A DNA stretch of 64,000 nucleotides from Nemertoderma westbladi (taxonomy: Eukaryota; Animalia; Xenacoelomorpha), in contig JAUCBJ010008395.1 of the NCBI GenBank assembly GCA_032718475.1, forward strand, positions 1-64,000, written 5' to 3'. Under the pieces are notes generated by a model. It was not told the origin of the DNA. It did no database searches and saw nothing but the letters and a program-made list of their open reading frames with translations. Position numbers and translations under genes: made by a program. Positions within the stretch are counted from its first letter, which is position 1, and each line of letters opens with the position of its first letter. Below, piece after piece: positions 5,407 to 44,111 of this stretch.

Positions 5407-5660
5407 CCCTCCGCAGTCTTCACCCTTTGTGGCCATCCTCATTGCGTAATCCAGCACAATTACAAATAGTAATGGTGCTAATTATCACTTTGCAGTACGC
5501 CAACCAGGATTGAGAAAAACTCAGTTTCACCATCTGGTGAGAGTACATGAGCTTCTGTGTCACAATATAATAATCCAATGCCAGCCACAATTACTTCTGG
5601 TATTCTATAAGCTCTTAGGATTTACAGCATTTTACTTCTATGGATGAAGTCGAATGTTTC
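5407..5660 (-). pseudogene. Degenerate RTE-like reverse transcriptase fragment
   Basis: Minus strand reads FDFIHRSKML*ILRAYRIPE..SPDGETEFFSILVGVLQSD/LAPLLFVIVLDYAMR, with a stop and a frameshift. Confidence 0.75.
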
Positions 5661-8711: not shown

Positions 8712-9970
8712 TGTAAAAGCTTCTGTGGGATATAACTGGCCCTTTTGCTTCGCAATCCAGTTTCCCCCCTAGGCGCTGGAATACTCTAAAAGGCTCTATA
8801 ACTATATATATATTCCCCTCGCCCGCAAGGTACCGTTATAGGTGTTTTAACGGACATAAAAGTCATTCTGCTATATACGTGTTTTGGCGGACATGGTAAG
8901 GCAAAAAACCTGCAATGCACCAAATACCTTTCACAGCTTAGCCGTGATGATTCATATTACGACATCTAACAGCTGGTTGCTGACATTGAAACAGCCATTG
9001 GCCACATGGTTCTTTGTTTAGCTTAAGCCAATCAGAGCGATTTTTTCTGTCGACGTGTAGATATTCGGTCGATCATACTAGGAGTGTTCAGTCTTACTGT
9101 TTTTTGTGATACTGTTGTGTTGTTGCTATCTAGGCCAGGAACACCGGCTCTAGAGTCAACTCGTTCATACTTTAGAAGAAACATTAGTAGGCTTAAATTA
9201 TAGAGCGTATAACTGTTATCAGTGCAGTCCGACTCAATCGGCACATACATTGTCATATCATATCTTAACCTACCGTCTTAATGCTTTTTACTGTTGTCAT
9301 ATTTTGTATTAGTTGGTTGAATATTATTTGGAGAACATTTATAAAGAACCCAAATTTCCCAATTTTCTTGATACACTACAGGTTAGAGAGACGGGTTATA
9401 TATAGCGATTGCGACTTATATTATTGTGTATGTAGTGAATTTAATGCTATTTGATAAGCACTACATTGGTCCGTTGCTGTTCTCTCTATATATGATAAAA
9501 TTCATTGACGGTCGGCAAATTAGTGAGCAGTATTGTGTGTTACCGGTAGTGTGCATGATTGTGACTGATAACTAAGCATTTCCTAAAGAATGCGCCTCAT
9601 ACGTGAATCATAAGCCTTACCGACTTACCGTTGTGATTAGTATAAGTCATATCTCTGTTTACTTAGATAGAGCGCCACGTCCTAAAGGAACTGTTAATAT
9701 TTCCAGAAAGTGAATAATATTAGTCAGAAATTATTTATTAACGATCAATCGAATAATACAGTAAGCTTACACTGCAATAATAATCTAAGCCCTCAGAATC
9801 CAGCCCCCCGGGTATATCCAGCGGGTGAATGGACGCGCACTAGGCTGGCTTCTGCTAATGTTGTGTTTATTGGTATTAAATATTTGTCAACTTCTAAAGT
9901 ATATTTATAAACCAAAAGACATATAAATTTTGGCAGGTTAAACTGCTAAAGGTCTTCAAAAGCGCGTACA
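8712..9970 (+). repeat. 5' LTR of element A
   Basis: TGTAAAAGC...GCGCGTACA; direct repeat of 29505-30763. Confidence 0.97.
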
Positions 9971-9981
9971 ATAACAGTTAT
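9971..9981 (+). promoter_or_regulatory. Non-tRNA primer-binding site of element A (ATAACAGTTAT), complementary to LTR 9209-9219
   Basis: Abuts the LTR-terminal CA, has no TGG, and is the exact reverse complement of ATAACTGTTAT in the LTR. The function is inferred. Confidence 0.65.
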
Positions 9982-10036
9982 TGACTTTATTGCAGTAAGC
10001 AATAAAGTTGAAAGTACCGGTCAACCGGTAAACCTG

Positions 10037-12199: not shown

Positions 12200-13938
12200 A
12201 TGTCTGACACTCAGCAAAACCTGTCAGACAGTCTAATCGATACAACCATCTGTGACACAGATAGGAGTGTGGAGCGATTAAGAAAGGAGTTCAGCTCACC
12301 TCCTACTGAAAGAAAAGTCATCCCTCCAGTAGTGGTATCGGACCCTAAGCTAATCCAACACCGTAGGTCTATCATCGGCACTCGGGCCCAAGTCAAACGG
12401 AACCAGGAAGCAGCTGTCCCACAGCAGCAACAGCCTAGTCAAGAAACTTGTTCCCAGCGATCCGATAGCTCCAGTAGTTCGGATACTGTCGAGCTGACCC
12501 CCGAACGCGGATTACAGATGACGGCTAAAGCCTACTCTGACCCCCTTCTCACCCTTCCTGCCGCAGTGCTAACTACTATATTGATTGCGGTGGAGGAACA
12601 TCAAGCCGACTGGGCGAGAAATAAGCGAGCGACCCAAGATAATTATGCGGGATACGCCAGGGAAGAATTGATGTCTATTGTCGAGTCACAATGGAACTTT
12701 CCCGGACCCGGACTCCCGTTAGATCTGTCCGAGGCTACTTGGGAAGATATACACAGGATGGGAGTGGCTAAAGATACGATGGATCCAGCTGTTTGGAAGA
12801 GGTCGGCAGCAGGATATGTGCAGGGATTCTTCGGCTCCTTAGAGCGATTAGAAGAACAACTGTTTCGACAACCCCAAGGACCTCAAGAGCAGGAAGAACT
12901 GCTATATCAAGTACGCAAAAGAACCCTATGCATTCGACTAATCCTATCAGCTTTTGAGGAAACTTCCAAAAGAAGACAGGACACGTCGCTGCAGGTAGCT
13001 GTCAAAACTTGGTTCCAGCGGGTAGGTCTCAAAGTACAAGAAACGGACCAGTGGAAATCCCAGCTGTCTGAGAGACTAACCTATGAAGAACCAACCGATG
13101 CCACCCTTTTTCAAGTGGAAGGCGAAGACACCGCAGAGAGACCACGAACGAGAGAAGCCATCGACATATATCTGTCCGACTATCAGCGATTCCTAGGAGA
13201 CGAAGAGTTGAGGAGACGGCTGTCTGGACTTTCCCCTAATAGTGAAGGAACCCAGCGTGTGTTAGACTCAATCGATGCTGAAATGTTAGCTGCTAACCAA
13301 GCTGAGTTTGATGAAAAACTCCGCCTCACTAGAGTCCAATAAGAACTAGTAAAGAAAAAAAGGATAGAGGACCGAAAGGCAGCTGCAGTAACAGCGGCAA
13401 TGGCCGAAGTGGAAGCAGAAAGAAAGGCAGCTGCAGTAACAGCGGCGGCAGAAGCAGAAGCAGAAAGAAAGGCAGCGGCGGCAGAAGCCGAAGCAGAAAG
13501 AAAGGCGACTGTGGCAGCAGCAAAGGCAGTGGCAGAAGCAGAACGGAGAGCCTCTGAGGAGACTACCCAACTGGAGTTGGAAAATCTGCAAGAGACGCAA
13601 GAAAACATAAATAAACAGTTAACTGCTAGTCACATGCAGATGATGAGAAAATCTACTCCCAAACGCCAAGGATATACGTCATCGGAGGAAAGCGAAACCA
13701 CCGATCCTGAAGGCGGAGGAAATAGATCTCGTCTAAGCAGGCGTAGAAAAACATCTTACCGTCACAAATTGCCTGATTTGCCCCCAGCTGTTAGAAGACA
13801 ATTAGCTAGCACAGACTTGAGTAGTATAGAACCTACAGACCAAATTATTAAGGTCAAAAGACTCCCTACTATAGTTGATGAGCCTGAAATAATTAGGCCT
13901 GTCGTTCCCAAAGTCACTCCTGTGTTAGAGACCCCTGT
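12200..13938 (+). pseudogene. Truncated gag of the A family (N-terminal ~580 codons, in-frame TAA at 13340-13342)
   Basis: Near-identical to the start of ORF 23276->20763, which has GAA at the position of this stop. The sequence switches to LTR sequence after ..GAGACCCCTGT. Confidence 0.93.
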
Positions 13939-14714
13939 TATAGAGCGTATAACTGTTATCAGTGCAGTCCGACTCAATCGGCACATACATTGTCATATCA
14001 TATCTTAACCTACCGTCTTAATGCTTTTTACTGTTGTCATATTTTGTATTAGTTGGTTGAATATTATTTGGAGAACATTTATAAAGAACCCAAATTTCCC
14101 AATTTTCTTGATACACTACAGGTTAGAGAGACGGGTTATATATAGCGATTGCGACTTATATTATTGTGGTTTGTAGTGAATTTAATGCTATTTGATAAGC
14201 ACTACATGAATCCGTTGCTGTTTTCTTTATATATGATAAAATTCATTGACGGTCGGCAAATTAGTGAGCAGTATTGTGTGTTACCGGTAGTGTGCATGAT
14301 TGTGACTGATAACTAAGCATTTCCTAAAGAATGCGCCTCATACGTGAATCATAAGCCTTACCGACTTGCCGTTGTGATTAGTATAAGTCATATCTCTGTT
14401 TACCTAGATAGAGCGCCACGTCCTAAAGGAACTGTTAATATTTTCCCGAAAGTAAATAATATTAGTCAGAAATTTATTAACGATCAATCGAATAATACAA
14501 TACAGTAAGCTTACACTGTAATAATAATCTAAGCCCTCAGAATCCAGTCTCCCGGGTATATCCAGCGGGTGAATGGACGCGCACTAGGCTGGCTTCTGCT
14601 AATGTTGTGTTTATTGGTATTAAATATTTGTCATCTTCTAAAGTCTATTTATAAACCAAAAGACATATAAATTTTGGCAGGTTAAACTGCTAAAGGTCTT
14701 CAAAAGCGCGTACA
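13939..14714 (+). repeat. 5'-truncated, chimeric A-family LTR (3' LTR of nested copy A')
   Basis: Matches the LTR from ~position 488 to the terminal GCGCGTACA, followed by AATAT (TSD). Confidence 0.92.
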
Positions 14715-15162
14715 AATATCGCACGAAGCAATGTCAGTGTGAAGAGGCAAGTCGTTTCCAAGGTCTACCCAGAGCTTGGCTTAGCCGAGACACGAGGATC
14801 TGAACTTTGCATTCCTAATACTCTGCCTACCAATAATACTTGAATATAGTAGTGGCTTTATTGTACTTTAAGAAGTACGGACATTTCATCTTACTGTAGT
14901 CACGTATTTATAATATGATACGGACAGTAAGGAAAGAGAAAAATAATTATTTTCTCGCCGTCGCACTAAATATATATTATAAGTAATTACGTACGTAATA
15001 AACACTAATATATTGCACTAATCTACTAAATAATCACTAAAATAACATTCTACTAAATAAAATTGAATAAAAACGATTATAATAAAGTACATAATAAAGT
15101 TCTCATATAAAAATATAACAAAATAGATAAAATAATATAGTCATACACCCACTCCAGACGTA

Positions 15163-18100
15163 TCACGTGGGGGAATCCCTAGATGTTTGAGGAATTAGGG
15201 AGGTGGTCGTGGGAAGAGTGTCTTGCCTTCCATAGTTCCCGGAGAGTTCTCTGTCTCTTTCCAGTAAACATAAACGACCAACTGGGCGATTGAGTTGTTG
15301 CGTCTCAAAGATTATGCCTGGCTTCTTGAAGTTACGCCGCATGACGATGAGTTCTACCGAGCGTACTAAACCATCATCTGAGATGTGGGTCTCGATGATA
15401 CGACCTGTCTGCCACCGTTTACGTGGGAGGTCTGGATCTACAATAAGCACCATATCTCCGGCGCTGACGTTTTCTTACTGCGCAAACCACTTAGTTCGAA
15501 GCTGTAGCGTGGGCAGATAATGTTTCTCGAAATGGTCAGCGAAACGACGGGATAGCAGCTGCATAAGTTGCCAAGTTCGACGGCAGTATTCGTCTCCGTC
15601 GGCAATCTCCGATCGTGGGAGCATGGCTACAGGTTTCTTCAGTAGGAAGTGCGCGGGTGTTAGCGCTTCCAGGGAATCGGGACTCGATGAGACTGGCATA
15701 AGCGGTCTCTCGTTGAGATAGGCAGCTATTTCCTCCATTAATGTCCGCAAAAGTTCGTCGGTGAGATACGCGCGGCATGGCACTATAAAGTGAAATGCCG
15801 TCTTGACACTTCTAATTAATCTCTCCCAACTTCCTCCCCACCAAGGGGCGTCGGCGGCGTTGAAGGTCCAGCTAGACGCTGTTATCCTTAGCTGGTCGTC
15901 CACCTGTCTTTGGTTCCAGTCCTTCACGTAAGCCTGTATTTCGTTGTTGGCACCAATGAAGTTCGTTCCCTTATCCGATCTCATGGTATTACTCGTCCCG
16001 AAGCGAGCGATCTGTCGTCGTAAACTTAAGACGAAGCTGTTGGTAGATAGATCGTTCACCATATCGAGATGGATGGCTCTACAAGTCATGCACACGAAGA
16101 TGACACACCATCTCTTGACTATAGTCCTCGCACGATATACTTCAATAGGGCCAAATAAATCTACACCAGTATTAGTAAAAGGTGGTTCATAGAAGCTTAC
16201 TCGTTCCCTAGGTAATTCTGCCTCTCGCTGTGTTAAAGGCCTACTGAATGCTTTCCTACAGGGTATGCAGTTCCTAAGAACTTGGTTCAGAGCTCTACGG
16301 GGTTTATCAAAATAATAGCGAGTTCGAATTTCGCTAAGAATTCGTTCTCTACCAGCATGATAAAGTTTACTGTGAACATCTACAATCATCTTGATTTGTA
16401 CTTCAAGATTTCTAATAAGTATGGGGAATTTGGTGTCAAAGGATAAGGGCGCGTTGGTGAGTCTTCCTCCAACACGTATTAACCCATCTATCATTGTGCT
16501 CGAGAATCGATCCCTTAAGCGCATCTGCGGGTTTCTCAACAACAGGAAATACTTATCGGAATCCTCAAAGCATTGCAGGAGTCTCAGTATCTGCTTATTT
16601 GTTACTTCATGCTCCTGGTGACTAATTTTCTCCTTTAGAAAACGGTCAGATGTCTTATATTTGGGTAAATTTTTAATAACATGAACTTGTGCAGATGTCA
16701 ATGGAGCGTTATCACTAGTGGTCTTCGTCCTGGAGTAGTGATGATGAAAACATCGTCTTAAATATGTGACGGCTTTACAGAGCCGATTCCAGGAACTGTA
16801 ATGATGCATTGCTCTCTGCAGCATGGGTGAGATTCCTTGCGAGACGTCTGGTATTCCAGATTTCCAATCTCTATCTCTAATTTCCACAACAGACTTATTT
16901 GTGTTGAGGGATTGTGGATCCGAAGCATCATTCCCGGAAGTATGTAATACAGATAGATCGATAGTCGGTTTAAATAACTTCGATTTACTCGCCCGGGTTT
17001 TAGGTTTGACTGTCTCCGCTCCCTTGGCTTGTCTAATCTCTGCCGTAGTAAGGTGAGGAGGCCATTCATCCTCTTCCTTGCTCAGGAAGTCGGGTCCACC
17101 CAACCAATCTGGAGTATCTATCAGTTCCTGTGGAGTTGCTCCCCTGGAGGCGATATCGGCTGGATTAATCATACCAGGGCAATGTCTCCATTGATCTATC
17201 TTTGTGCGACTAAGAATAATAGCTACTCGGTTAGTAACAAAAACGCTGAACTGACAGACTTCGTTGGTTAGATACTCCAACACGAGTAAAGCGTCGGTCC
17301 AATAAACCGTTTTCTCCAGTGGGTAGTCGATTTGTTCCGTTACGTTCCGGCCGATGGCTGTAGCGTATAAAGCCGCCTTTAACTCCGCTCGAGGAACCTT
17401 TAACTTGTTGTTAATCAACGCCTTAGAGGTAACCAAGGCGACTTTGATTCCATCCGGGGTTTCGACTCGCAGATATGCTACTATACCTATTCCCATGTCG
17501 CTGGCGTCTCCAAACACGTGGAGTTGATAGGAATACGTAGGAAGAACATGGCCAAAATATGCACGGGAAATTATAAAGTTCTCGATGGCAGGTAGAGAAT
17601 CTTCCCATTTCATCCATTTCTTTAACAATTCTCCCTTAAGCGGATCATCCCATGAGTGGTTTTCAAGCCACATTTGTTGCACTAAACTCCGAGCAATCAA
17701 TATAACTGGGCTAATAAATCCCAATGGGTCGAAATAAGTGCTCAGGATGCTTAAACAAATCCGTTTGGTCCGAACTGGATTATCTCGCTGTTTTAACTGA
17801 AAAAACAGGATGTCTCTTTCAGTGTCCCACTTCAAGCCTAGTGTCTTGGTTTCAGGAAGATCGTCCTTTATTAAGTCTAGGTCTTTCGTTCCTCGGTCTT
17901 CTACCGGTATGGCTTCCAGAAACTCACGGGAGTTGCTAGTGAATTTCGTCAGTCGAAATCCACCTCTTTTCAAACACTCCACCGTTCCTTTCGCGACAGC
18001 TATGGCTTCTTCTACTGATGGAAGGGACCTTAAATTGTCGTCCATGTATATATTCCGTTTGATGTTGTCAATCACCTCTTTTGAGAAGGAGTCTCGGTTG

Positions 18101-21100
18101 TCATTCGCAGTGGTTCGCACCACGGAGCAGGCGTTGGAAGGGCTTGATATGATTCCAAAGGCCTGGATGGTCATCCAGTATTCTACCGGTTTCTGATTGA
18201 GGTCTCCTTCAGGCCACCACAGAAATCTCAGGCTGTCTCTATCTCTATCCAGCGCCTTGACTTGTAAGAACATTCCTTCGATATCGGAGGCGAACGCGAT
18301 GGAATATTGTCTTAATCTTAAAAGTATTCCCAACAAAGATTGGAGTAAGTTGGGTCCTGGTAACAACTCGGAATTGAGGGATTGGCCCATATATAGGGCG
18401 GAGCTATCGAATACGACTCGTACTTCGTGTGGTTTACCGGGTTTGGGAACGTAATGATGTGTTAAGTAATACGTTCTCTCAGTCACTGGTGTTCCTTCCG
18501 GTACTCGCTCCGCGTATCCCTTTGTTATAAATTTCTTCAGCTGAGTTTGGTACATTTCTTTCGCTGAAGCATTAGCTGTAAGGCGTCGATATAATTGAGC
18601 GATTCTTTTCTCTGCCAAGGGTCTGTTATTTATAAATCTAGGTTCTCGTTTTCGAAATGGTAGGCCGATTTCATACCTACCTTGGTCCTTTAAAAAACGT
18701 GTAGTTGTTTCCTGGATTTGCTTGGCTCTTTCTTCTTCTATCGATAGAGCCTTATCATATGAATTGGGCTCTACCAGTTCCTGAGTAAAGAATCGTACGG
18801 CTAGTTCGTCCCGAGTTCTAGCGTTGCAGCGCTCTATCTCATTGTTTAGTTCGTCATTGTAAGCGATGGGTTCCGATGGGCGAATCAGTTGACATAGGTT
18901 CACCTGATTTTTCCAAGTTTGGTTTTCTGTAAGTAGGTCGATGGTGTTCTCTTGATCGAAGAGTTGGTAGATGTCGTCATTATCTGAAGAGTATGGTGTT
19001 TCCTCAGTTAGTTCATCCACCTCACTGCTCTCCTCGCTCCAATCACTCACCTGGTATACTCGTTCTTGTGGCCTTCTCTCTTCGAGAGTCCTGCGGGAAG
19101 GGCCAGTAAAGTACCAACCTACTCTAGTTCTTACCGCATAGGTTTGCAGTGGCTGCGGTTGAGCAGGCCGTTTCTCTAATGTTTCGAGCGCCTCGTGCGC
19201 GTTTTGGCCGATGAGTATTTGCACTCCAGGATAATCTGTCTGGAATCGAGGTATCTTAAGATGTTGGATGCTCTCATCTTCGTCCCAATTATAAAGGTCT
19301 GCTTGAGTAGTAGCGAAGTTCTTTATAGCCACAATTTTTACTGACCTTATACCTTGTGCTCCTAACTTATCCTGGGGGGTGGACAACACACCTACATAGT
19401 AATCTGCCGTTAGGGTAGATTTCCAAACCTGCATAATTCCTGACATATTCAATTTAGTCCGGAATTTGGGTTGTCCAGCAAAGATATCTTCGGCTAATTC
19501 TTGATCGATGAATGTTCCTGTGCTGCCGGAGTCAAGGAGTGCGTTCACTATGTAACTGTGGTTAGGACCGTGAACTCTTACCTGCACTACAGGAAATTCT
19601 CTGATTCCTACGTTGGAAGTTGGAGCTTTCCAAGATGGTTGTTTGGCAAAAGTAGTTGGGGGAAACTCATTGTTGGTGTCCTTTTCATAAGTAAGTGCTC
19701 GATACACTGCGGTATTGATTAGATAACAGGATTCGTTGGCGTCGGAGAATTCGTCAGTATAGAATCCTTCCATCTCAGACTCCTGATCAGTGTCATTTAC
19801 ATCACTGAATTGGACATGTAGTTCGGGCTCACTTACCTGACTCTGTTTGTCTCGTTCGAACTCACTGTGTAACAAGATGTGATGTTTCGCGCCACACTTT
19901 GCACACTTTATGTCGGAGTAACAGGTTCGCCATTGGTGTCCTGGTCTGAGGCAATTATAGCATAACCGCTTGTCCCACACAACTGCACGTCTGTCTACAA
20001 GGGATTTCTTTAGAAATTCAGCACACGCACTCAAACGGTGGGTCCCGTCGCACAGCGCACAGTTAGGTTTTATGTTACTCACTTTACCTTGGGTAACTTG
20101 ATGCACTCTCGTTTTTTCTTCGGGTTTTCTTCGGTGCATTCTGTTAGGAGACTGAGGGGGGGTCTTGGCGACCTGTTCTCTCCTATCGTTGTTTCGAGCC
20201 TTGTATTTACTTACATCTTTTGATGTTTTGTCAACGTAGTAAGATCTCTCAGTGTCTTTCCCGCTATCCTCTTCTTGAGAAGCTTGGCTTTCGCCGTCGT
20301 CAGTGTAACACACCGGTGTTACTCTTCTCCTAGAAGCGGGTTTCTTACTTACCTTATTTTCCGATGTTTTCTCTCTGGACTGCTTGATGAGTTGTAGTTT
20401 TACCTCACCATCTAAGAAGGACATGAGATCAGCCATGGTAGGACTTCGTCGTTGTTGTTCATTCATGTACAACACTTTCTTGTCCCAACGTGTACATACT
20501 CCACCCTTGGGTAAAGTAGAGACTACTGCTCCAATAACCATGGAACTCTGATATTCATGAGACTTACCTAACCAGTCCAATTGTCTACAGATTTCCTGAA
20601 TTTCATCGGAAAACTCTATAATCCCGCTACTAAGGAAGTGTCGGGGGGCTACTAATTTTGCATACAAATACTTAGCTATGTTATCCTTGTTACCATACCT
20701 GATGTTTAATGTATCCCAAACTTGTCTCAATCCATCTGGATGTCCAATAAACTTTAACGCCATTAACCTGGGAGGTCCTTCCAAGCACTTGATGAGGAAC
20801 CTAAGTTTCTCTCCGTTAGATTAGATAGTACAGAGTTTTGTATGCTATCTTTGTAATATTTGTTGAAAGGTAACCATTTCATCTCATCTCCATTGAATTT
20901 GACGATCTCTCCCACTTTGACCGCTTGGCGGGCTTCTGTTCTAGCCATCTGACGCGTAAAGCTTTCTTGGGCCATCGTGTTATTTAATATCGAATTATCG
21001 GTATATAAATTTCTCGGATCATTGTCAGGTCTATAAGGGATATCATTGATAACAGGTCTATAATCACCCTTAATAGGGTTTGCTATAGGAGTTTCTACTT

Positions 21101-23276
21101 CACTAGCAGTATAGATGCGGGTAGGCTCCACACCTTGCGCATGTACTACTTCAGACCTAACAGGTTGACACAATTTTACAGGGGGTATTGGTATTCCCTT
21201 TTGGATATTGACTAATTTGTCGCGTTCTAGCGCGATACTTTGCTGCACTTCTTGCAATTCGGCCCTACCTTCCCTTACTGTTCCCTTAAGTTGGTAGACA
21301 GTCTCCTGCATCTGTCCGAGCAGGAGATTCATCCCCCACCGTCCCTCCTCTACCCACTCGACCGCCGAAGCGGGAGTCGCCAACATTGTAGCGGGCTGAC
21401 GTGGGGCGACGGGAGACAAATCTTTGATTTCTCTCTCAGCTTCCAGGACAGGGATATTCTCATGGACTGTTCTACCGGGCACAGGCAGTGTAGTACTGTG
21501 TAAAGGGAATTTAGAGTTAAGCTCTGGAAGTACAGGGGTCTCTAACACAGGAGTGACTTTGGGAACGACAGGCCTAATTATTTCAGGCTCATCAACTATA
21601 GTAGGGAGTCTTTTGACCTTAATAATTTGGTCTGTAGGTTCTATACTACTCAAGTCTGTGCTAGCTAATTGTCTTCTAACAGCTGGGGGCAAATCAGGCA
21701 ATTTGTGACGGTAAGATGTTTTTCTACGCCTGCTTAGACGAGATCTATTTCCTCCGCCTTCAGGATCGGTGGTTTCGCTTTCCTCCGATGACGTATATCC
21801 TTGGCGTTTGGGAGTAGATTTTCTCATCATCTGCATGTGACTAGCAGTTAACTGTTTATTTATGTTGTCTTGCGTCTCTTGCAGATTTTCCAACTCCAGT
21901 TGGGTAGTCTCCTCAGAGGCTCTCCGTTCTGCTTCTGCCACTGCCTTTGCTGCTGCCACAGTCGCCTTTCTTTCTGCTTCAGCTTCTGCCGCCGCTGCCT
22001 TTCTTTCTGCTTCTGCTTCTGCTTCTGCCGCCGCTGTTACTGCAGCTGCCTTTCTTTCTGCTTCCACTTCGGCCATTGCCGCTGTTACTGCAGCTGCCTT
22101 TCGGTCCTCTATCCTTTTTTTCTTTACTAGTTCTTCTTGGACTCTAGTGAGGCGGAGTTTTTCATCAAACTCAGCTTGGTTAGCAGCTAACATTTCAGCA
22201 TCGATTGAGTCTAACACACGCTGGGTTCCTTCACTATTAGGGGAAAGTCCAGACAGCCGTCTCCTCAACTCTTCGTCTCCTAGGAATCGCTGATAGTCGG
22301 ACAGATATATGTCGATGGCGTCTCTCTTTCGTGGTCTCTCTGCGGTCTCTTCGCCTTCCACTTGAAAAAGGGTGGCATCGGTTGGTTCTTCATAGGTTAG
22401 TCTCTCAGACAGCTGGGATTTCCACTGGTCCGTTTCTTGTACTTTGAGACCTACCCGCTGGAACCAAGTTTTGACAGCAACCTGCAGCGACGTGTCCTGT
22501 CTTCTTTTGGAAGTTTCCTCAAAAGCTGATAGGATTAGTCGAATGCGTAGGGTTCTTTCGCGTACTTGATATAGCAGTTCTTCCTGCTCTTGAGGTCCTT
22601 GGGGTTGTCGAAACAGTTGTTCTTCTAATCGCTCTAAGGAGCCGAAGAATCCCTGCACATATCCTGCTGCCGACCTCTTCCAAACAGCTGGATCCATAGT
22701 ATCTTTAGCCACTCCCATTCTGTGTATATCTTCCCAAGTAGCCTCGGACAGATCTAACGGGAGTCCGGGTCCGGGAAAGTTCCATTGTGACTCGACAATA
22801 GACATCAATTCTTCCCTGGCGTATCCCGCATAATTATCTTGGGTCGCTCGCTTATTTCTCGCCCAGTCGGCTTGATGTTCCTCCACCGCAATCAATATAG
22901 TAGTTAGCACTGCGGCAGGAAGGGTGAGAAGGGGGTCCGAGTAGGCTTTAGCCGTCATCTGTAATCCGCGTTCGGGGGTCAGCTCGACAGTATCCGAACT
23001 ACTGGAGCTATCGGATCGCTGGGAACAAGTTTCTTGACTAGGCTGTTGCTGCTGTGGGACAGCTGCTTCCTGGTTCCGTTTGACTTGGGCCCGAGTGCCG
23101 ATGATAGACCTACGGTGTTGGATTAGCTTAGGGTCCGATACCACTACTGGAGGGATGACTTTTCTTTCAGTAGGAGGTGAGCTGAACTCCTTTCTTAATC
23201 GCTCCACACTCCTATCTGTGTCACAGATGGTTGTATCGATTAGACTGTCTGACAGGTTTTGCTGAGTGTCAGACAT
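15163..23276 (-). pseudogene. BEL/Pao Gag-Pol polyprotein of element A (~2700 codons), disrupted by a frameshift at ~20810 and an in-frame TAA at 15475-15477
   Basis: Three Gag knuckles (CALCDGTHRLSAC, CYNCLRPGHQWRTC, CAKCGAKHHILLH), protease LLDSGS, RT YMDD, RNase H FGDAS, integrase HSKLYH..CIPC, DLFGP, SDKGTNF, WERL, and C-terminal DDGLVRSV. Order PR-RT-RH-IN. Confidence 0.95.
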
Positions 23277-25506
23277 GTTTAGCTATACAGTTGAATGCTT
23301 ACTGCTATAGTTACAGTTAAAGCAAGTCTAGTAATTCAGTATGACCGTTGGCCTAGTACCGGTAATTTATCGCAGTATATTAGAATACCGGTATACACTT
23401 ATAGTATATATAAGTATTGTAAACTAGGTTTGTCACAGAGTACCGGTATATAATTTTAGCACAAATATATAAATATATAATAGGCCTATCGTGAATACCG
23501 GTATACAGCTTACACTGATAGTATATATAAGTATAATTATGGACTAGAATTAATTACAGAGTACCGGTATGATTTCAGCTCAAATTTATAGAAATAAATA
23601 TAATAAGCCTATGGTAAATACCGGTATGTCAATTATTTTAGAATAATTGAATTTCTGAATATTTTAGGGTTACTTGGTTACTTTAACTTACTTTGTTACC
23701 GTTATTTAAGCAGTAGTCCAACTGATATTGAGACCTAGTTGTTGTATGGCAGGCCTACTATTTATAAATCGTTTAAGTTGATTTATAATAGATATATACC
23801 CGTTTAAAATGGGTTTTGTCAATATTTGAAATAAATGTTATTATTTCTGGGGTCACTACACAGAAGCTATGCGCTCTCAGTGGAGTGCTACTTATGGGAC
23901 ACTAAAACTGATAATTCTAATTTACCTAAGTTACTTAATACTACAAATTACTTACGATACGGGTGAGATTAATTCTCTAATTAAACACAACAAAAATATT
24001 ACGTACGAAATTTTAGGGTAATTTTACAGGAAGTCTACAAACCAGCCTAACAAAGGGTTAGAATTCTGGTTATTACAACGGACAGGGTACTACGGTATTT
24101 GAAATAATAAGTAGTAGTAAATATATTGCACTGTCCAGATAGGAAAATACCACCGCCTGACGACCTATAACTGTATCGCTATAGGTACTACGTTATGTAT
24201 CACGGAGTGTTCCTACCTAGAAGTTAATTACCGCGGACTACCAGATCCAGCGTGCCTATTAACCACTTTACAACACAAATATACTGCCTACACACTAATT
24301 ACTTTCGGAAAGCACTGTACACTAAACCCTAAATTAGGTACAAGCACTGGTACAACAAATAATCAGTAGTTAAATATACTTGAACAGTTAAAAGAACCAC
24401 GGCATCTGCTGGAGTGACCAGAGCACAAAGTCACCAGTCTTGTCCTACGCCAAGCAGCCCGTGTAGTACCGGGGTTAATTTAACTATAACGGTATGTGTA
24501 ACAAACACAATTACTGTAGGAATAAACTTGGGGACATGAATGTTGCGAATAATCGCATAAACTCTGAATAATAAATATTACGCTACCCGTACAGAATACT
24601 CAAACAAAATACAAACCAAACGCTGGCAGACTACTACCAGGCCTAAATAAACTACTGTATGTGCAGATTCCAAAACGGTTAGTTAGTATGCGTTCTAACA
24701 CGGTAGTACGACTTATTCTTTAAGAGGGGATTGACCTTACAGCTATGGCTACCCCAACTTACTAACTGGCACTTTATCAGACAAACTCTACACAAGCAGC
24801 AATCTCTTCAGACCTAATAATAGCTAGACAACAATCCAGCCTACAAAATATCTGAGTAATAACTATTACGGTACCTGAACAGACCACACAAACAAACACA
24901 GGCCAAAACGCTGGCAGAATACTGTCAAGCCTAAATAAACTACAGTATGTGCAGATTCCAAAATTGTTAGTTAGTATGCGTTCTAACATGGTAGTACGAC
25001 TTATTCTTTAAGAGGGGATTGACCTTACAGCTATGGCTGCCCCAACTTACTAACTGGCACTCTATCGGACAAACTCTACACACGCCGCAATCTCTCCAAA
25101 CTCAACAACAATCCGACAACAGTCCGGCCTACAGTTATCTGAACAATCTGAGCAGACTTACACGTCTTCAGCTCAATATTAACTTACTAGGAAATAAAAC
25201 TGACAGAAATAGACCTAAGTAAAATCTCAATAAAAACCAGGCGTCCCCGATTTAATATCGAGACCTACCGTTATACAATAATCAAAATCGAATAATACTA
25301 ATGTACTTATACTGGAAGTACCGGTTAGGACAGTTGGGCCTACGGACCTACAGAAGTACCGGTTCTGACAGTTGGACCTACGGACCTACAGCAGTACCGG
25401 TTCTGGCAGTTGGGCCTACTGACCTACAGAAGTACCGGTTCAGGTTTACCGGTTGACCGGTACTTTCAACTTTATTGCTTACTGCAATAAAGTCAATAAC
25501 TGTTAT

Positions 25507-26791
25507 TGTACGCGCTTTTGAAGACCTTTAGCAGTTTAACCTGCCAAAATTTATATGTCTTTTGGTTTATAAATAGACTTTAGAAGATGACAAATATTTA
25601 ATACCAATAAACACAACATTAGCAGAAGCCAGCCTAGTGCGCGTCCATTCACCCGCTGGATATACCCGGGAGACTGGATTCTGAGGGCTTAGATTATTAT
25701 TGCAGTGTAAGCTTACTGTATTGTATTATTCGATTGATCGTTAATAAATTTCTGACTAATATTATTTACTTTCGGGAAAATATTAACAGTTCCTTTAGGA
25801 CGTGGCGCTCTATCTAGGTAAACAGAGATATGACTTATACTAATCACAACGGCAAGTCGGTAAGGCTTATGATTCACGTATGAGGCGCATTCTTTAGGAA
25901 ATGCTTAGTTATCAGTCACAATCATGCACACTACCGGTAACACACAATACTGCTCACTAATTTGCCGACCGTCAATGAATTTTATCATATATAAAGAAAA
26001 CAGCAACGGATTCATGTAGTGCTTATCAAATAGCATTAAATTCACTACAAACCACAATAATATAAGTCGCAATCGCTATATATAACCCGTCTCTCTAACC
26101 TGTAGTGTATCAAGAAAATTGGGAAATTTGGGTTCTTTATATATGTTCTCCAAATAATATTCAACCAAACAATAGTAAATAGCAGTATAATAATGTATAT
26201 TGAACCGATAATGTAAAACTGAATTGCGATCAGTTGTTATGATAAGATAAGTTGATTGTTATGCACTGATTGTTATGTTATGATAACAGTTATACGCTCT
26301 ATAATTTAAGCCTACTAATGTTTCTTCTAAAGTATGAAAACGAATTGACTCTAGAGCCGGTGTTCCTGGCCTAGATAGAAACAACACAACAGTATCACAA
26401 AAACAGTAAGACTGAACACTCCTAGTATCATCGGCCGAATATCTACACGTCGACAGAAAAAATCGCTCTGATTGGCTCAAACCAAACAAAGAACCGTGCG
26501 TCCAATGGCTGTTTCCATGCCAGCAACCAGCTGCTAGATGTCGCAATCTGAATCATCAAGGCCAAGCCGTGTAAAGGTATTTGGTGCATTGAGGGTTTTT
26601 TGCCTTACCATGTCCGCCAAAACACGTATATAGAAGAATGACTTTTATGTCCGTTAAAACACCTATAACGGTACCTTGCGGGCGAGGGGAATATATATAT
26701 AGTTAGAGAGCCTTTTAGAGTATTCCAGCGCCTGGGGGGAAACTGGATTGGGAAGCAAAAGGGCCAGTTATATCCCACAGAAGCTTTTACA
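25507..26791 (-). repeat. 5' LTR of nested copy A' (1285 bp, diverged variant)
   Basis: Reverse complement runs TGTAAAAGC..GCGCGTACA. Flanked by ATATT (26792-26796). PBS-like ATAACAGTTAT at 25506->25496 and its complement at 26293->26283. Confidence 0.95.
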
Positions 26792-27977: not shown

Positions 27978-29426
27978 ATGACGGAGTTGATAGAAGATGA
28001 TCTTGGTATCAGGGAGCGATATACTCTACCTTTACAAGCATTTGTGGATAGCTTGATACGCGGTGAAACCGATCCAACCATTACGGAGGACGATGGTCGT
28101 TATATCGAACCGCCGATGTCCCAAGAGCAACTTACGCGTGAATTGGACTATCGAAAATTCACCGCTCGCTATACGCATCGTAATGGTACGTATATGGACT
28201 TCCTAACTACCGGCCATCCTATCGATTTACATGATACGGACGATGTAGACACCGAAAGGGAAATGGTTCTATTTAAATATCATACCCAGCGGAGTCGTAA
28301 CGATAAACCGAGAATAGATCACGAAAATTATATTCGTAACAGACTGGGAAGACGAACCAATATGCCTAGAATCTGAGGAGATTCAGCCTATCGCGCCCGG
28401 AACAGCGACAACGATTACATCCTAGAATGGTATCAAGGTCCACAGTGTCTCACTGCGTACGATTATCGCCATGCCAACTATGTTTCTCGGCAACGTTGTC
28501 GGTTATGCGCATCGAGAGACCATGTTACGCCCATGGACACAAACGTCCGCTGTTCCTATTTCCACGAACGACCGGCGATGGAAATTTATTGCGCGTATTG
28601 CAGACTCAATAACTTGCATATTTTTGCGGTTTGCCCTCAATTTATGACTCAATGTCACCGTTGTCGGCTAAAGGGACACGCCAGTTTCGATTGCCCTTTT
28701 AATCACGATTTAGAAAGCGTAGATGAAATGATCACACTACGTTACATCAGAGCTTGGGAAGCGAACGCTGATTTACATTGTGATTCGCGCCATCGCTATT
28801 ATCCCGGACGCGCTTACGAAGGAGTTTATGCGTTCCATCCTTATCTATTCGCTTCGGTTGAACAGAAATCACGCATATCGAGTTACGAACTACTGAAGCG
28901 CGTCGGAGAATGTATCTCAACCAAGTTCGTACGCAAATTTCTCAGGAGTGTTAATCCTAGCGACCTTCATTCCTATAACTTAATCAATTATATCCGTCAG
29001 GATCCGGACTATGGAGACTTGTTTGTTAACTCACACCCCGAGTTACAGGAAGTATATCGACGGCCTTACGAATACCGAGCCCGCGAACGCGAGTTGGAAA
29101 GAACCATTAAACCCCGGAGGTTTCTAACTGCCTATGGTCCACCCACGGCCCTCGTTCAGACCACTCGTAAAGGACCCGTAAGAGCGGCTGTCTGGAAACG
29201 AGCTCTCAAAGCCGTTAGACCCCTCTCCCCTGACGTTGATGTCAATCAACCCGGTACTTCGACTGGCGGATACACCGACCATAATCCTACACCCTCTGAT
29301 GCAATCATATTGCACCCTTCACCCAGGAGTTATAGCCCTCCTTGTAAAGTGGCTCGCCCCAAGGAGAAAAGGACTCTGGCTAGCTTTAAGAAACTGCATA
29401 AACGCCGTCCGCGCAAGAAAGACTAA
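27978..29426 (+). CDS. Accessory ORF of element A (~482 codons, one in-frame TGA at 28374-28376): zinc-knuckle protein with a basic C-terminus
   Basis: ORFs 27978-28376 and 28533-29426 share a frame and the gap between them has no stop. Motifs CRLCASRDH..C, CAYCRLNNLHIFAVC, CHRCRLKGHASFDC; tail KKLHKRRPRKKD. Confidence 0.75.
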
Positions 29427-29504
29427 CTGTTTAGAGTATTTACGTATATTAGAAACTGTGATTTTGTATATTTTATAGACTCAAATCCCATTTTCTGGGA
29501 GCGG

Positions 29505-30763
29505 TGTAAAAGCTTCTGTGGGATATAACTGGCCCTTTTGCTTCGCAATCCAGTTTCCCCCCTAGGCGCTGGAATACTCTAAAAGGCTCTATAACTATAT
29601 ATATATTCCCCTCGCCCGCAAGGTACCGTTATAGGTGTTTTAACGGACATAAAAGTCATTCTGCTATATACGTGTTTTGGCGGACATGGTAAGGCAAAAA
29701 ACCTGCAATGCACCAAATACCTTTCACAGCTTAGCCGTGATGATTCATATTACGACATCTAACAGCTGGTTGCTGACATGGAAACAGCCATTGGCCACAT
29801 GGTTCTTTGTTTAGCTTAAGCCAATCAGAGCGATTTTTTCTGTCGACGTGTAGATATTCGGTCAATCATACTAGGAGTGTTCAGTCTTACTGTTTTTTGT
29901 GATACTGTTGTGTTGTTGCTATCTAGGCCAGGAACACCGGCTCTAGAGTCAACTCGTTCATACTTTAGAAGAAACATTAGTAGGCTTAAATTATAGAGCG
30001 TATAACTGTTATCAGTGCAGTCCGACTCAATCGGCACATACATTGTCATATCATATCTTAACCTACCGTCTTAATGCTTTTTACTGTTGTCATATTTTGT
30101 ATTAGTTGGTTGAATATTATTTGGAGAACATTTATAAAGAACCCAAATTTCCCAATTTTCTTGATACACTACAGGTTAGAGAGACGGGTTATATATAGCG
30201 ATTGCGACTTATATTATTGTGTATGTAGTGAATTTAATGCTATTTGATAAGCACTACATTGGTCCGTTGCTGTTCTCTCTATATATGATAAAATTCATTG
30301 ACGGTCGGCAAATTAGTGAGCAGTATTGTGTGTTACCGGTAGTGTGCATGATTGTGACTGATAACTAAGCATTTCCTAAAGAATGCGCCTCATACGTGAA
30401 TCATAAGCCTTACCGACTTACCGTTGTGATTAGTATAAGTCATATCTCTGTTTACTTAGATAGAGCGCCACGTCCTAAAGGAACTGTTAATATTTCCAGA
30501 AAGTGAATAATATTAGTCAGAAATTATTTATTAACGATCAATCGAATAATACAGTAAGCTTACACTGCAATAATAATCTAAGCCCTCAGAATCCAGCCCC
30601 CCGGGTATATCCAGCGGGTGAATGGACGCGCACTAGGCTGGCTTCTGCTAATGTTGTGTTTATTGGTATTAAATATTTGTCAACTTCTAAAGTATATTTA
30701 TAAACCAAAAGACATATAAATTTTGGCAGGTTAAACTGCTAAAGGTCTTCAAAAGCGCGTACA
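29505..30763 (+). repeat. 3' LTR of element A
   Basis: Direct repeat of 8712-9970, preceded by PPT GGGAGCGG. Confidence 0.97.
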
Positions 30764-31293: not shown

Positions 31294-32251
31294 TGTTAAA
31301 CTGGGATGGTAATAATGGGCCTCGCCCTGATTACTTTGTTTATTATCTGATAATAATTGACTGCCAATCTCTGTAGATAGTAGCTCCCACATTTCCTACT
31401 TTCTATTGGTACAGTACAAGGTGCTAATAGTTATGATCAGCTGTTCTGGCCCTACCATTGAATGCCTTGTAACGATAGTTAAGGAATTATTGCGGTCAGG
31501 TGGTACCTCAGCTTTCATGTAATAGTGTTGCTTTCATGTAGTCAGGTTGTACCTCTACATTGATAATACCGTACTAAACATATTTGAACTTATTTATATT
31601 TAGATATATTTCATATTTATATTCAGTCAGTGGCTACCTAGTACTCGCTGTGCTGTACGAGGCGACCCAGTCTTGCCTGGTGCTTTTCCTCAACCGAGCA
31701 GTTTACCGTCCGCGTGAGTTATCCGGTCGCGGTCACGGTCGGTGCGTCTGGATGGTTGGTGGCCCCCCTTGGCCCCAACGGCAACCACCGATAGCTCAAC
31801 AAACTCTATTTCATTCGGCCTTGCCTATTCGCCTGACATAACGGCATAGGGAGCCATACTTTCCTTTAACGTGTTATCTTTCACGATACAGATAACCCAC
31901 CTATTGGGTTTCTGGGATCATTATATTATGATATAAAGTACACCCTCAATCGTACTGATTGTCGGGCCTGTTTGTGTTGGTTATTATTGTGAACGGTGCT
32001 ACACAGCGGAGGCCAGTTAAACAAACAAAGTGAGTTTCAAACCACATTAATAGGTTTACCCTGCTTGGTGTCTTGTAGCTCTACCGTAAAGCCATAAGCT
32101 GCCCCCTTATGACCCTTTTGTGTAAGATAGTTTAAAATAAGTGTGCGAATGTCCCCTATCCACCCCGGAATTCGACCTGTCAGTCACGTCGTACCGAGAA
32201 AGTCGGGTGTCAGGTTCTTTATTAACTGTCTAACAGTCACCGACTTTGACA
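31294..32251 (+). repeat. 5' LTR of element B
   Basis: TGTTAAACT...CTTTGACA; direct repeat of 41496-42453. Confidence 0.97.
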
Positions 32252-32263
32252 TTAAAGGAAAGT
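32252..32263 (+). promoter_or_regulatory. Non-tRNA primer-binding site of element B (TTAAAGGAAAGT), complementary to LTR 31858-31869
   Basis: Abuts the LTR-terminal CA, has no TGG, and is the exact reverse complement of ACTTTCCTTTAA in the LTR. Confidence 0.7.
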
Positions 32264-32876
32264 TAGATTTTTCAATTAATACCAGTTACCTGTAATTGAT
32301 ATTAATTGGAGAAAGTGCGATCCTCATTCGCCACCTTTCTGTGTGGTCTGATTTTACTTACAGTACCTTTAAAGTGAGATATATATTAAAAAAAAATATA
32401 TAAGGGTTAATTTTTTACTGTTGCTGGTAATATCTAAGTTTATATATATACTGTACTGTTGTATATATGGTGTGTTTACATAGAGTAGATATACCGGTAG
32501 TATACATAATTAAATTGACTTGGGATTCCAATGATATTTGACTGTGGAATGTCTGCATACTGGCAACCTTAATAAAATTACACACCTTTGATTAAATTGA
32601 TAATTGGTTTAATTTCGTAAATTTAAATATATTGAAATTGGCCTAAAACGAATAGTTTTGTTTCCGCAGCGATTTGTTGCAGATATTGTTTACTATTTCG
32701 ACTTACTACTAACCGCTAACCGCTGTATAGTTTCTCATTTAAATTTAGGCTATAATGTAAAAGGTTGACCTGAAAAAATTGGTTATTAAAAAGATAAAGG
32801 CTAATTTATTTTATTTTACAGGCCTACATAATCAATTATTAATTTATATAAATAACAATTCCCACAAGTATTAAAT

Positions 32877-35800
32877 ATGAGTGATTATAGTAAAACTAGT
32901 CAAAGGTCAACCCAAAGTCAGCAAGTCCTAAGTCCACAGCGAACCAAACCAAAGGTTATACAGGATAAAGTACAAGGTGGCCTTGGGGCACCTCCCACAA
33001 GGAACGCAGCTCATGTTGGGGCTGCGGCCGTAGCCAATCAAAACTTACCTGAGATTTTGGTTAGCCTAGCTGCACTTGGTCTCGACGCTGCCTCTCTGGA
33101 AACAGAGGGTTGGCGCAGGGCACTTGGTGGGGTCATTGGCTACCGCAACCGCCGAGTCAATGAAATTATTGCCTTGCAAAGGGCATGGACTGATGAGACT
33201 CCTATTGATCTCCTACGGGGTTATGGCATCGAGATGGAGGAGATATTATCAAAAAGACGGCATCTCAGTGAAACCTTGCTTCGGTATGCTAAACTTACAA
33301 ACCGTGAGCCCATATGCTTATATGTACAAAAGGCAGATGCCGAATTTACTGTCATAATCAATAAATTTTTTAATGCTATGCCGGGAGGTCTATACCCACT
33401 TAAAGCAGCCAAGTCTTTGGGAGAGGTGGTGCCACCAGTAGTGGATGAAATCACTGGTAAAGTTGCTGATATGACAATTTGCTCACCAACCAATATATCA
33501 GTTGTACCTTATGTTACACCAGTAAGTCGTTCTGTTGATGTAGCTACTGAATTAGCAGCTGATAACACACTCTGTCCAAACGACAGTGTTTCCCAAATAC
33601 CCGTAGGTTCTCACTGCAGCAACTCCAGTTCTACCGTTCGAGCCTATCTGGAGGCTGAGCAGAAAAGGGATGAAGCACACAGGGAGAGAGTTAGGCGCCA
33701 TGCTGTAATGGAGCAGGAGGAAGCTCTCCTCAAAGCCGAGGCTGTTAGGCAACGCGCTATTAAAGAGCAAGAAGAACAAATCTCTCGCGTTGATACTGCT
33801 ATAATCAAAGCACAGGCCAAGCGGCGTGCCCAAGAAAAAATGGATGAAGCTGAAATGGAGATTGAGCAGCGTAAATCTCGTAGAATCATTGAGTATGGTT
33901 CAGGTGGAAGTGCGGGATCAGGTCTTTCACGGGGAACATTTCCGCTCCGAACCCCAGATCGACATCCACATGTAACATCTACACTCACTTCAACACAAAT
34001 CCCAGCGACTATGCCAGTGACATATAATAATTTGTCGCCACCTTTAGTGTCGGCTGTTAAGGCAGCCAATCCATCCATAACACCATTAAATCCAAAGGCA
34101 GTGCCTTTCCTGCCATTAAAACCATTACCAACTGGTCAATATCGGGTTCGAGAACCAAACCCAAACCATAGGCGAAGTATGCCTTCCTCTGCTGCCATAC
34201 CCATTCATCAAGATCCTGAAGCAGAGCGACAACCATTTGCCTCAGGTACTCGACCACCAATTGCGAGTAATCTTCCACAGGTAACCAAGAAATTTCCAGC
34301 TCAGGACATTCGGTATCTACCAGGAACTGCTTTAGGGTCAAATCCACATCGAGAATTCATGAACACTGACAATGGTCCTCCCATCCCACGATCACAAAAT
34401 CCAGTGTGGTATCCACATAATGCAAGAATGTCTGGGCCACCATATGGCTCGCAGCGACATCAATATCCAGAGGTATCCCGATATAATGATGTTGATCCAA
34501 TGGGATATCCAGAAATAGGGACTCAAAATCAAAATACCCAAAATATTGGACAATCACAATCTGGGCTTAACACTAGTCTAGAACAAGCCAGTATGCGAAT
34601 TTTGTCGCATACAGAAATCAATCGATTTCTACCATACACTAAATTTGTCACCTTCAAAGGTGACCCAGAACAATGGCCAGCCTTCTTACAGTACTTTACC
34701 ACAACTGTTCTTAGTAAAGGCTTGTCCTCTCAGGAAAATCTTAGCTTTTTGCTATCTGCAACTGCTGGGCCGCCCCACCTTGCAGTCACCCAACATATTG
34801 GAATCCCTGGGGGTTTTGAGAAGGCCTGGGCAAAACTTAAAAAACGCTATGGCAATCCGCGATGGCTTGCCAAAGAGTTATATCGCCAAGTTATTGAGTA
34901 TCCTGCTCTTAAAGGCCAGCAGGATATTACTCCATTTTTTGATACATTGGAGCGTATTGTAGCGCAATTAACAGCAATTGATCAAATAAATGAATTGGAT
35001 AACGCCCCAATTATAAGTACTATGGTCCAGAAACTAACTGGAGCATGTCAAGGTCGGTGGTTTAAGAATGTGAAACGTCTTGTATACCCCGAATCTGATC
35101 GTATTATGCCTCGTTCTGAGAATCTAAATGATTTTATGAAGTTTCTTGAATGGGAAGTTGATTTGGCTGAGTGCAGTGGTGCCCCAACAGCTGCTGCTAT
35201 AGATAAGGCAGCACGGAATCAACCTAGAACCGAATTACGGCCTTCTTATCGATGGCATCCAAAAAAGGCAGTTGAAGCAGCCTTTGCAGCCTCAGCAGCT
35301 GTAACTCCAGAAATTTATAATAAGTCAGCCGATGAGGAATCAGAAGAAACAACCTGTGCAGTAACAGACCGCAAATTGCCTTTACCAAGTAAATCAAAAT
35401 CCTCTAAACCAAAACTGTCATGTGAAAAACCCAAGTCAGTACCACCCGAATGCATCCGATGTAAAAATGGTAATCACCATATCTACCGCTGCGAAACATT
35501 TCACAAAGATGATGTTAAACAGCGCCGAGACTTTATATCAAAGTCTCGACTTTGTTATAATTGTCTTCGTTCAGGTCACACCACCACAGAGTGCCCTTCA
35601 GCACGAAATTGCAGAGCATGTGATAATCGCCATCATACCTTGATATGTCGAGACCCTAATGCTTCAACTGCTGTAGCTGTACTTACTGCAGAGTTGATTA
35701 CTGGATCAGATTCATCCTTTGTTGAAGATAGTCCAGGAGAGGTAGAAGCAGAGGCTGAGGCCTATATAGTTGAAATGGTAGACTCTCCATCCATTGCTAA

Positions 35801-41495: not shown

Positions 41496-42453
41496 TGTTA
41501 AACTGGGATGGTAATAATGGGCCTCGCCCTGATTACTTTGTTTATTATCTGATAATAATTGACTGCCAATCTCTGTAGATAGTAGCTCCCACATTTCCTA
41601 CTTTCTATTGGTACAGTACAAGGTGCTAATAGTTATGATCAGCTGTTCTGGCCCTACCATTGAATGCCTTGTAACGATAGTTAAGGAATTATTGCGGTCA
41701 GGTGGTACCTCAGCTTTCATGTAATAGTGTTGCTTTCATGTAGTCAGGTTGTACCTCTACATTGATAATACCGTACTAAACATATTTGAACTTATTTATA
41801 TTTAGATATATTTCATATTTATATTCAGTCAGTGGCTACCTAGTACTCGCTGTGCTGTACGAGGCGACCCAGTCTTGCCTGGTGCTTTTCCTCAACCGAG
41901 CAGTTTACCGTCCGCGTGAGTTATCCGGTCGCGGTCACGGTCGGTGCGTCTGGATGGTTGGTGGCCCCCCTTGGCCCCAACGGCAACCACCGATAGCTCA
42001 ACAAACTCTATTTCATTCGGCCTTGCCTATTCGCCTGACATAACGGCATAGGGAGCCATACTTTCCTTTAACGTGTTATCTTTCACGATACAGATAACCC
42101 ACCTATTGGGTTTCTGGGATCATTATATTATGATATAAAGTACACCCTCAATCGTACTGATTGTCGGGCCTGTTTGTGTTGGTTATTATTGTGAACGGTG
42201 CTACACAGCGGAGGCCAGTTAAACAAACAAAGTGAGTTTCAAACCACATTAATAGGTTTACCCTGCTTGGTGTCTTGTAGCTCTACCGTAAAGCCATAAG
42301 CTGCCCCCTTATGACCCTTTTGTGTAAGATAGTTTAAAATAAGTGTGCGAATGTCCCCTATCCACCCCGTAATTCGACCTGTCAGTCACGTCGTACCGAG
42401 AAAGTCGGGTGTCAGGTTCTTTATTAACTGTCTAACAGTCACCGACTTTGACA
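41496..42453 (+). repeat. 3' LTR of element B
   Basis: Direct repeat of 31294-32251. Confidence 0.97.
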
Positions 42454-43860: not shown

Positions 43861-44111
43861 TGAAATACAATAAAATATAATCTAGTCCGTACCCTAATGA
43901 AATTGCAAGTGTTATTATTATATTATATTATTATTTGAGTACCAAAGATAAATTACATTAATTATTCCTCCCCAGGACCAAAACGAAATATACAGTATTT
44001 GGTAGGACCATGGGTTATTATCTTGTTGAGATTTTTACTCCAGAGATTTTTACATAATCAATCAGGATAACTATATTACAACTTATCCTATAAAGAAATA
44101 AACTCCTCATA

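Follow-up and report, generated by a model that had tools for sequence, protein, structure and literature searches.

BEL/Pao retrotransposons are assumed to begin reverse transcription on a host tRNA, and this step is poorly understood; the ICTV profile of the Belpaoviridae describes an 18-nt site for tRNA-Arg or tRNA-Gly (PMC8742986). In Tf1, as passages of PMC7175516 describe, the transcript's initial 11 bases instead pair with the primer site, and RNase H cutting between bases 11 and 12 makes the primer. The 64,000-nt stretch of Nemertoderma westbladi DNA analysed here (the window) raises the question of how an element with BEL/Pao proteins but no tRNA site is primed. One element in it, A, carries after its 5′ LTR a short stretch complementary to its own LTR; it holds a nested, diverged copy of its family (A′) and is followed by an element of a second family (B). 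Feature coordinates are collected in Table 1.

Table 1. Features of elements A, A′ and B in the window.
Feature	Position	Strand	Remarks
5′ LTR of A	8712..9970	+	1259 bp, TG...CA; target duplication CATGT at 8707-8711
Initiator-like TCAGTC in A LTR	9088..9093	+	retained in A′; candidate (inferred) start ~119 nt upstream of primer motif
LTR motif of A, predicted self-primer	9209..9219	+	complementary to A primer site; predicted cut after 9219
Stretch swapped for unrelated sequence in A′	9222..9299	+	swap starts 2 nt past predicted cut
U5 segment of A	9765..9780	+	can pair with 9987-10000 behind primer site, a candidate U5-leader helix that does not exceed controls
Primer-binding site of A	9971..9981	+	immediately after LTR CA; without TGG
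Truncated LTR	13938..14714	+	starts at LTR position 9198/9199; motif at 13949-13959; followed by AATAT 14715-14719
Pol-bearing ORF, inverted middle part	15475..20820	-	end of Gag, protease, RT YMDD, RNase H, integrase
Upstream gag-region ORF	20763..23282	-	839 aa, no Pfam match
Primer-binding site of A′	25496..25506	-	read from sequence
5′ LTR of A′	25507..26791	-	1285 bp; motif 26293->26283; ATATT at 26792-26796
Extra ORF ahead of A 3′ LTR	28377..29426	+	weak CCHC zinc-knuckle similarity
Polypurine tract GGGAGCGG of A	29497..29504	+	directly before 3′ LTR
3′ LTR of A	29505..30763	+	motif copy 30002-30012; CATGT repeated at 30764-30768
5′ LTR of B	31294..32251	+	958 bp; target duplication GTATA at 31289-31293
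TATA-like and initiator-like sequences in B 5′ LTR	31591-31598 and 31623-31628	+	motif match
LTR motif ACTTTCCTTTAA of B, predicted self-primer	31858..31869	+	complementary to B primer site
Primer-binding site TTAAAGGAAAGT of B	32252..32263	+	immediately after LTR CA; without TGG
gag-pol of B, one open frame	32856..40280	+	2474 codons
3′ LTR of B	41496..42453	+	GGGAGCGG before, GTATA after; motif copy 42060-42071

The two LTRs of A are 99.84% identical by self-comparison and alignment, and their ends are fixed by the second LTR together with the 5-bp CATGT duplication. Judged from LTR identities of 99.8% and 99.6%, the insertions of A and B are both recent. Host flanks lacking A and lacking B were found on one contig of run X1, so both insertions are absent there (30764-31293). 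This run was used as contigs and its RNA status was guessed; it contains diverged copies of family A, but gives no cover at 9123-9216 and none of B. Both elements landed in LINE-type DNA (7259-8785 on the minus strand, and 30764-31293) bearing an open reading frame with RVT_1 and DUF6451.

Assignment to BEL/Pao, made in the initial annotation from the letters, was borne out by Pfam, which matched PF05380, PF03564, PF17921 and PF18701. As in Belpaoviridae, the two elements between them combine Peptidase_A17, DUF1759, DUF5641 and an integrase zinc finger with Pao-type Gag and Pol, three Cys-His boxes, Pol motifs in the order PR-RT-RH-IN, direct TG..CA LTRs, 5-bp target duplications and a short polypurine tract. 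PF05380 was present in all best homologs but one among the matches listed, and the best database relatives of A and B reach ≤42%. Neither a chromodomain match nor a Ty3/gypsy chromovirus Pol was returned by Pfam; A and B are BEL/Pao elements and not members of the Tf1/sushi group. What they lack from the ICTV profile is the 18-nt site for tRNA-Arg or tRNA-Gly, absent in A, A′ and B alike (no TGG in the first 12 nt). This was treated as no bar to membership in Belpaoviridae, the site being a descriptive trait and the family being defined by Pol phylogeny. The A unit is also longer than the 4-10 kb given by ICTV and includes an extra CCHC-like ORF. This frame follows pol and precedes the 3′ LTR of A. 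It spans 27981-29426 with one in-frame TGA at 28374-28376 and has three Cys/His clusters, a zf-CCHC_3 match that fell below the cut-off (E 0.0015) and, as a lead only, Atlas matches of ≤0.86 to AIR2/ZCCHC7-like zinc-knuckle proteins.

The 11-nt site ATAACAGTTAT that follows the 5′ LTR of A is the exact complement of ATAACTGTTAT within that LTR. Both lie where the initial annotation had placed them (9971-9981 and 9209-9219), and the site has no TGG in the first 12 nt and does not fit a tRNA 3′ end, in line with its statement that the complement is not a tRNA. Of 5000 dinucleotide shuffles of the LTR, 10 gave an anchored 11-nt complement at offset 0 and 27 did so when offsets of 0-5 were allowed; for A′, the same anchored test gave 8/5000. 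When internal positions of A were used as false primer sites, 7 of 3929 gave ≥11 nt, and the same-strand control for A gave only 5-6 nt. Taken on its own, the pairing in A is suggestive. The site is palindromic across the LTR end (CAATAAC-A-GTTATTG, 7-1-7) and can self-fold or dimerise, with a homoduplex energy of -14.2 kcal/mol compared with -10.1 kcal/mol for the primer duplex; the quasi-palindrome listed earlier as a caveat had been understated. No tRNA gene was found within the window by ARAGORN, and an Rfam search of the window returned two weak U12 matches only (E 0.24), which were taken as chance.

A′ lies nested in A on the opposite strand. From the truncated LTR at 13938-14714 and the 5-bp pair AATAT (14715-14719)/ATATT (26792-26796), the region 13938-26796 is seen to have undergone a nested insertion followed by inversion and partial deletion of the middle. 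In a contig of run X1, 14720 is joined to 26792 in opposite orientation, the two sides sharing 5 letters, which fits copies without the nested insertion. The Pol-bearing ORF in the inverted part stops ahead of the C-terminal DUF5641 stretch present in B. The complementary pair was located in A′ as first described (25506->25496 with 26293->26283), but had been given too much weight as evidence: A and A′ are 94.5% identical in U3 and 98.6% in U5 and the internal region, with both 11-mers unchanged, so that A′ adds little. As an independent covariation test it was ruled out, the flanks being 94-99% identical and neither 11-mer changed. Downstream of the motif a replaced stretch does exist, beginning 2 nt after it; the ~100+ nt first given for it holds for A′ (about 100 nt), whereas in A it measures about 78 nt (9222-9299). 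The truncated LTR is joined to gag-region DNA via 1 shared nt, 10-11 nt upstream of the primer motif; it is A-type at its start and shifts to A′-type within the first 230 nt. This junction may point weakly to a boundary close to the motif, or be due to chance.

A more informative comparison is provided by B. Its Pol is 35% identical to that of A overall and 48% in RT-RNase H, and no similarity between the LTRs of the two elements was detected by blastn. The site of B has a 12-nt complement in its own LTR, a length attained in 0/5000 shuffles at offset 0 and in 5/5000 with offsets, and this site is non-palindromic (homoduplex 0.2). With the same position and length but different letters in a sister family, B is stronger evidence than A′. 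What the sequences show is the complementarity itself, its location where the LTR ends, the absence of TGG, and a pairing that is kept in other families with other letters.

For relatives, a metagenome scan yielded 79 BEL/Pao loci, 48 without a terminal repeat and 31 with one. Among the latter, 13 had a boundary-fixed 5′ LTR end and 6 an inferred end; L020 and L021, which belong to the family of L027, were kept out of the final count, and 10 more were dropped as their repeat reached the contig end. The end of L007 was set by hand ~10 nt inside the repeat boundary after the match had been seen, that of L063 is ambiguous, and that of L024 is doubtful. Offsets were widened from 0-2 to 0-5 after the sequences had been inspected, the narrower range having missed L003, L012, L069 and L022; the controls use 0-5. 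No relative was found in two scans of viral contigs.

TGG was present in the first 12 nt after the 5′ LTR in none of the 13 relatives with a definable LTR end, and in 11 of them the element's LTR contains 10-15 nt exactly complementary to the primer site (offsets 0-5). The complement is contiguous in three (L022, L025 and L063), and in the remaining eight (L002, L003, L006, L007, L012, L027, L054 and L069) it appears only across a predicted GT..AG junction. Although only GT[AG] was demanded by the search, the donors were GTAAGT (four times), GTAAGC (twice), GTAAGG and GTACGT, and the acceptors were pyrimidine-rich. In the controls, ≤1/150 internal sites per element attained the observed length, and host DNA past the 3′ LTR gave a complement of only 4-9 nt. 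L076 has 7 nt exact, or 12 nt with one G-U pair when read by eye, and L024, with its doubtful LTR end, has no complement in its own LTR. Five of the six inferred-end loci give 10-11 nt across a junction, a partly circular result in which L055 belongs to the family of L054; the sixth, L060, gives 9 nt, which is not significant. Comparing primer site and LTR motif across other families had been proposed as a check on the pairing in A, and other letters do pair in B and in 11/13 testable relatives. The self-pairing trait looks old and widespread in aquatic BEL/Pao elements and not private to A; the earlier view of a feature special to the A lineage gives way to one spread over a large aquatic branch.

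The paired stretch starts at or beside GT in L002, L006, L007, L022, L025, L027, L054, L063 and L069, so that the predicted primer ends in AC in most relatives; A and B differ from this pattern. Spliced primers were also considered for A and B and rejected. In A, the best junction gives 10 nt with a poor donor and merely re-reads the contiguous motif; in B, it gives 7 nt only, reached in 24/25 shuffles. ATAG occurs 5-8 nt upstream of the primer motif in both A (9198-9203) and B (31844-31849), and strong donors (GTAAGG/GTGAGT) lie further upstream in the LTRs, at 8896 and 31714. An LTR intron ending just before the primer, as in the spliced relatives, is possibly present in A and B, with weak candidate acceptors.

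In RT-RNase H trees, A groups with B as its sister (1.0 and 100), the two forming a long separate branch, and together they join an aquatic group weakly (SH-aLRT 81, in a quick tree with midpoint root and no outgroup from another superfamily). The group comprises all self-pairing loci along with schistosome, mollusc, echinoderm, cnidarian and fish proteins, and lies apart from most insect and nematode ones; LTR data are absent for the insect and nematode rows, and origins of the trait cannot be counted from this tree. The branch is probably the Sinbad/Sailor or Suzu side, as placed in a tree without named reference elements.

The position of the motif relative to the RNA start bears on how closely such priming would resemble that of Tf1. 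B carries a TATA-like box and, 32 nt from it, an initiator, which lie 233 nt upstream of the motif (LTR positions 298/330 vs 565), with a possible intron between. In L025, the corresponding positions are 101/131 vs 225, about 90 nt upstream, and in L003, L069, L007 and L076 a TATA lies 140-170 nt upstream of the donor. Counted in genomic nt, the motif of B and of most TATA-bearing relatives lies some 90-250 nt downstream of where transcription is predicted to start. L002 is an exception: its TATA is 36 nt before the donor, as would suit a primer at the extreme 5′ end. For A, the initial annotation had equated the motif with the transcript start at ~9209, and no promoter motif was found that points there. 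On motif matches, not mapped starts, which more often suggest a primer lying about 100 nt or more within the RNA, a primer formed by the 3′ end of a longer 5′ fragment is favoured over a start exactly as in Tf1. An initiator-like TCA is present at 9219-9221 of A and retained in A′; an RNA start at this TCA, just downstream of the motif, would count against a self-primer model and would explain the A/A′ swap point equally well.

Under an exact copy of the Tf1 scheme, transcription would begin at 9209 in A and at 31858 in B, and the RNA would supply its first 11-12 nt as primer. Such a copy would share its self-priming core with the explanation preferred here and depart from it in the start site alone. 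The length of 11-12 nt and the offset of 0 are those given for Tf1 in passages of PMC7175516, the motifs of A and B both start with A after T, and when folding begins at the first base of the motif, the motif is paired with a probability of 1.0 in B and, for short spans, of 0.8-0.87 in A. The geometry of L002 speaks for the same scheme, as does, as a weak boundary hint, the truncated LTR that starts 10-11 nt upstream of the motif. Set against these points, no canonical TATA lies about 30 nt upstream in either element, as already remarked for A in the initial annotation, TATA/initiator pairs are found 90-250 nt upstream in B and L025, and the first exon would have merely 4-9 nt in the spliced relatives. 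On balance, we consider an exact Tf1 copy unlikely, though the strongest of the alternatives.

Two other accounts depart further from self-priming by a 5′ fragment. The pairing could be real and the primer come from elsewhere: from cutting of the motif of the 3′ LTR or of the second packaged RNA, or from another host RNA, the duplex of LTR and site then being a switch that hides the site until that RNA primes. The motif is indeed present in both LTR copies (30002, 42060), the TCA at 9219-9221 could exclude it from the 5′ end of the RNA, and the palindrome homoduplex of A is more stable than the primer duplex. The site of B has no such palindrome, however, the letters change in nearly every family in a way that no single host RNA could follow, and an unspliced 3′ copy would not pair in the spliced relatives, so that we regard this account as distinctly improbable. 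The match could also be ascribed to chance or to a palindrome artefact in an AT-rich LTR, with priming by a tRNA half or at an unseen site. For A alone, taken from many features scanned, the probability of a chance match is ~0.2-0.5%, and some copia elements are primed by tRNA halves according to passages of PMC6317226. Yet the pattern is repeated with other letters in B (0/5000) and in 11/13 relatives against controls, and these two results bring chance close to refutation; very little credence is left to it.

Our preferred explanation, drawn from the combined analysis, is that A and B probably start reverse transcription on their own RNA and not on a tRNA, by a fold-back in which RNase H cuts out the primer; that they supply their own primer in some form is more probable still. 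By analogy with Tf1, the transcript would fold back so that 9209-9219 pairs with 9971-9981, and the RNase H of the element's RT would cut 3′ of the paired motif, after 9219 in A and after 31869 in B. The new 3′ OH would be extended through U5 and R as far as the cut, and the strong-stop DNA would then land in the 3′ LTR, immediately downstream of the motif. In contrast to Tf1, the motif probably does not have to open the transcript: a longer 5′ transcript fragment, with a candidate start in A at about 9090, would provide its 3′ end as the primer. This primer would be contiguous in A and B and assembled by LTR-intron splicing in many relatives.

Several observations bear on this scheme. The acidic residues of RNase H are present in A′ and B, cleavage itself being predicted. 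On folding, the primer site of B pairs with a probability of 0.61-1.0 in all six spans, while the result for A is unstable and varies with the span (0.68-0.88 where it ends at 9990-10010, 0.03-0.06 where it ends at 10060 and 0.0 where it starts at 9134). Flanking pretzel helices of the Tf1 type can be drawn in A, and in the best case for A/B 15/300 shuffles were as good; compared with internal controls, such helices were not above background in A or B (86-297/300 as good). The A/A′ swap, 2 nt past the predicted cut, fits a strand transfer joining two templates there. An intron downstream of the promoter would be inherited only if the strong-stop DNA ends at or after the spliced joint; a cut at that point would explain this, and tRNA priming to the cap would not. 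We weigh evenly for and against the broader proposal that the whole aquatic Belpaoviridae branch, from cnidarians to fish, has abandoned tRNA priming for a primer inside its own transcript, cut by RNase H some 100 nt from the cap, with pairing letters that would stand in the LTR itself in A, B, L022 and L025 and be built from an LTR intron by the host spliceosome in L002, L003, L006, L012, L027, L054 and L069. If primers are spliced in this way, splicing would act as a gate on reverse transcription and intron inheritance would be explained.

Passages of PMC4600332 and PMC5341516 describe self-priming for the Tf1/sushi and Tcn1 groups, and pretzel helices are described for Tf1 and Tosmo1-3 in part of bioRxiv 10.1101/2022.12.06.519325. 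Like Tf1/Tf2 of Schizosaccharomyces pombe, Tj1, Tosmo1-3 and the Tf1/sushi and Tcn1 groups of Ty3/gypsy chromoviruses, as far as these passages describe them, A and B have no tRNA site, carry after the LTR CA an 11-12 nt site complementary to their own LTR, and encode an RT with an RNase H that could cut. They differ from those groups in their proteins, which are BEL/Pao and not Ty3/gypsy and give no chromodomain match, in loops of 762 nt (A) and 394 nt (B) with flanking pretzel helices not above controls, and in a primer that is probably not at the very 5′ end and in many relatives would be formed only by predicted splicing. For the copia TAR lineage of plants (Houba, Osr-1), passages of PMC6317226 predict self-priming from sequence, from which it follows that a switch away from tRNA has happened more than once. 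A and B resemble that lineage in that self-priming is predicted outside the Tf1/sushi group, and differ from it in superfamily and hosts. A search of full-text literature gave no report of self-priming in BEL/Pao; an earlier remark may exist in subscription papers, Repbase or GyDB. By word look-up, the primer site is not treated in the parts so covered of the BEL/Pao surveys PMC3118150, PMC6238403 and PMC554778, and passages of PMC8220671, PMC6934838 and PMC3601003 make no link between BEL/Pao and self-priming.

Were the preferred explanation true, BEL/Pao would be the third superfamily with self-priming, after Ty3/gypsy and (predicted) copia, and this matters for deciding if self-priming goes back to a common ancestor or arose several times. 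Such elements would no longer depend on the supply of host tRNA or be open to silencing through tRNA 3′ fragments, and LTR finders that rely on a tRNA site may under-call them. For testing, a clean pair is at hand in the window: two young families that differ in their letters and have exact predicted cuts at 9219/9220 and 31869/31870.

Elsewhere in the window, a dispersed repeat occurs in two copies that match in part (85-95%), at 2193-2982 and 4677-5416, with no LTR hallmarks by eye. Host-like open frames with PAN and LamG domains are found at 44094-44801 and 46509-47267, and tandem arrays have units of 54, 12 and 17 nt at 50.6-56.3 kb and of 68 nt near 60.6-61.4 kb.
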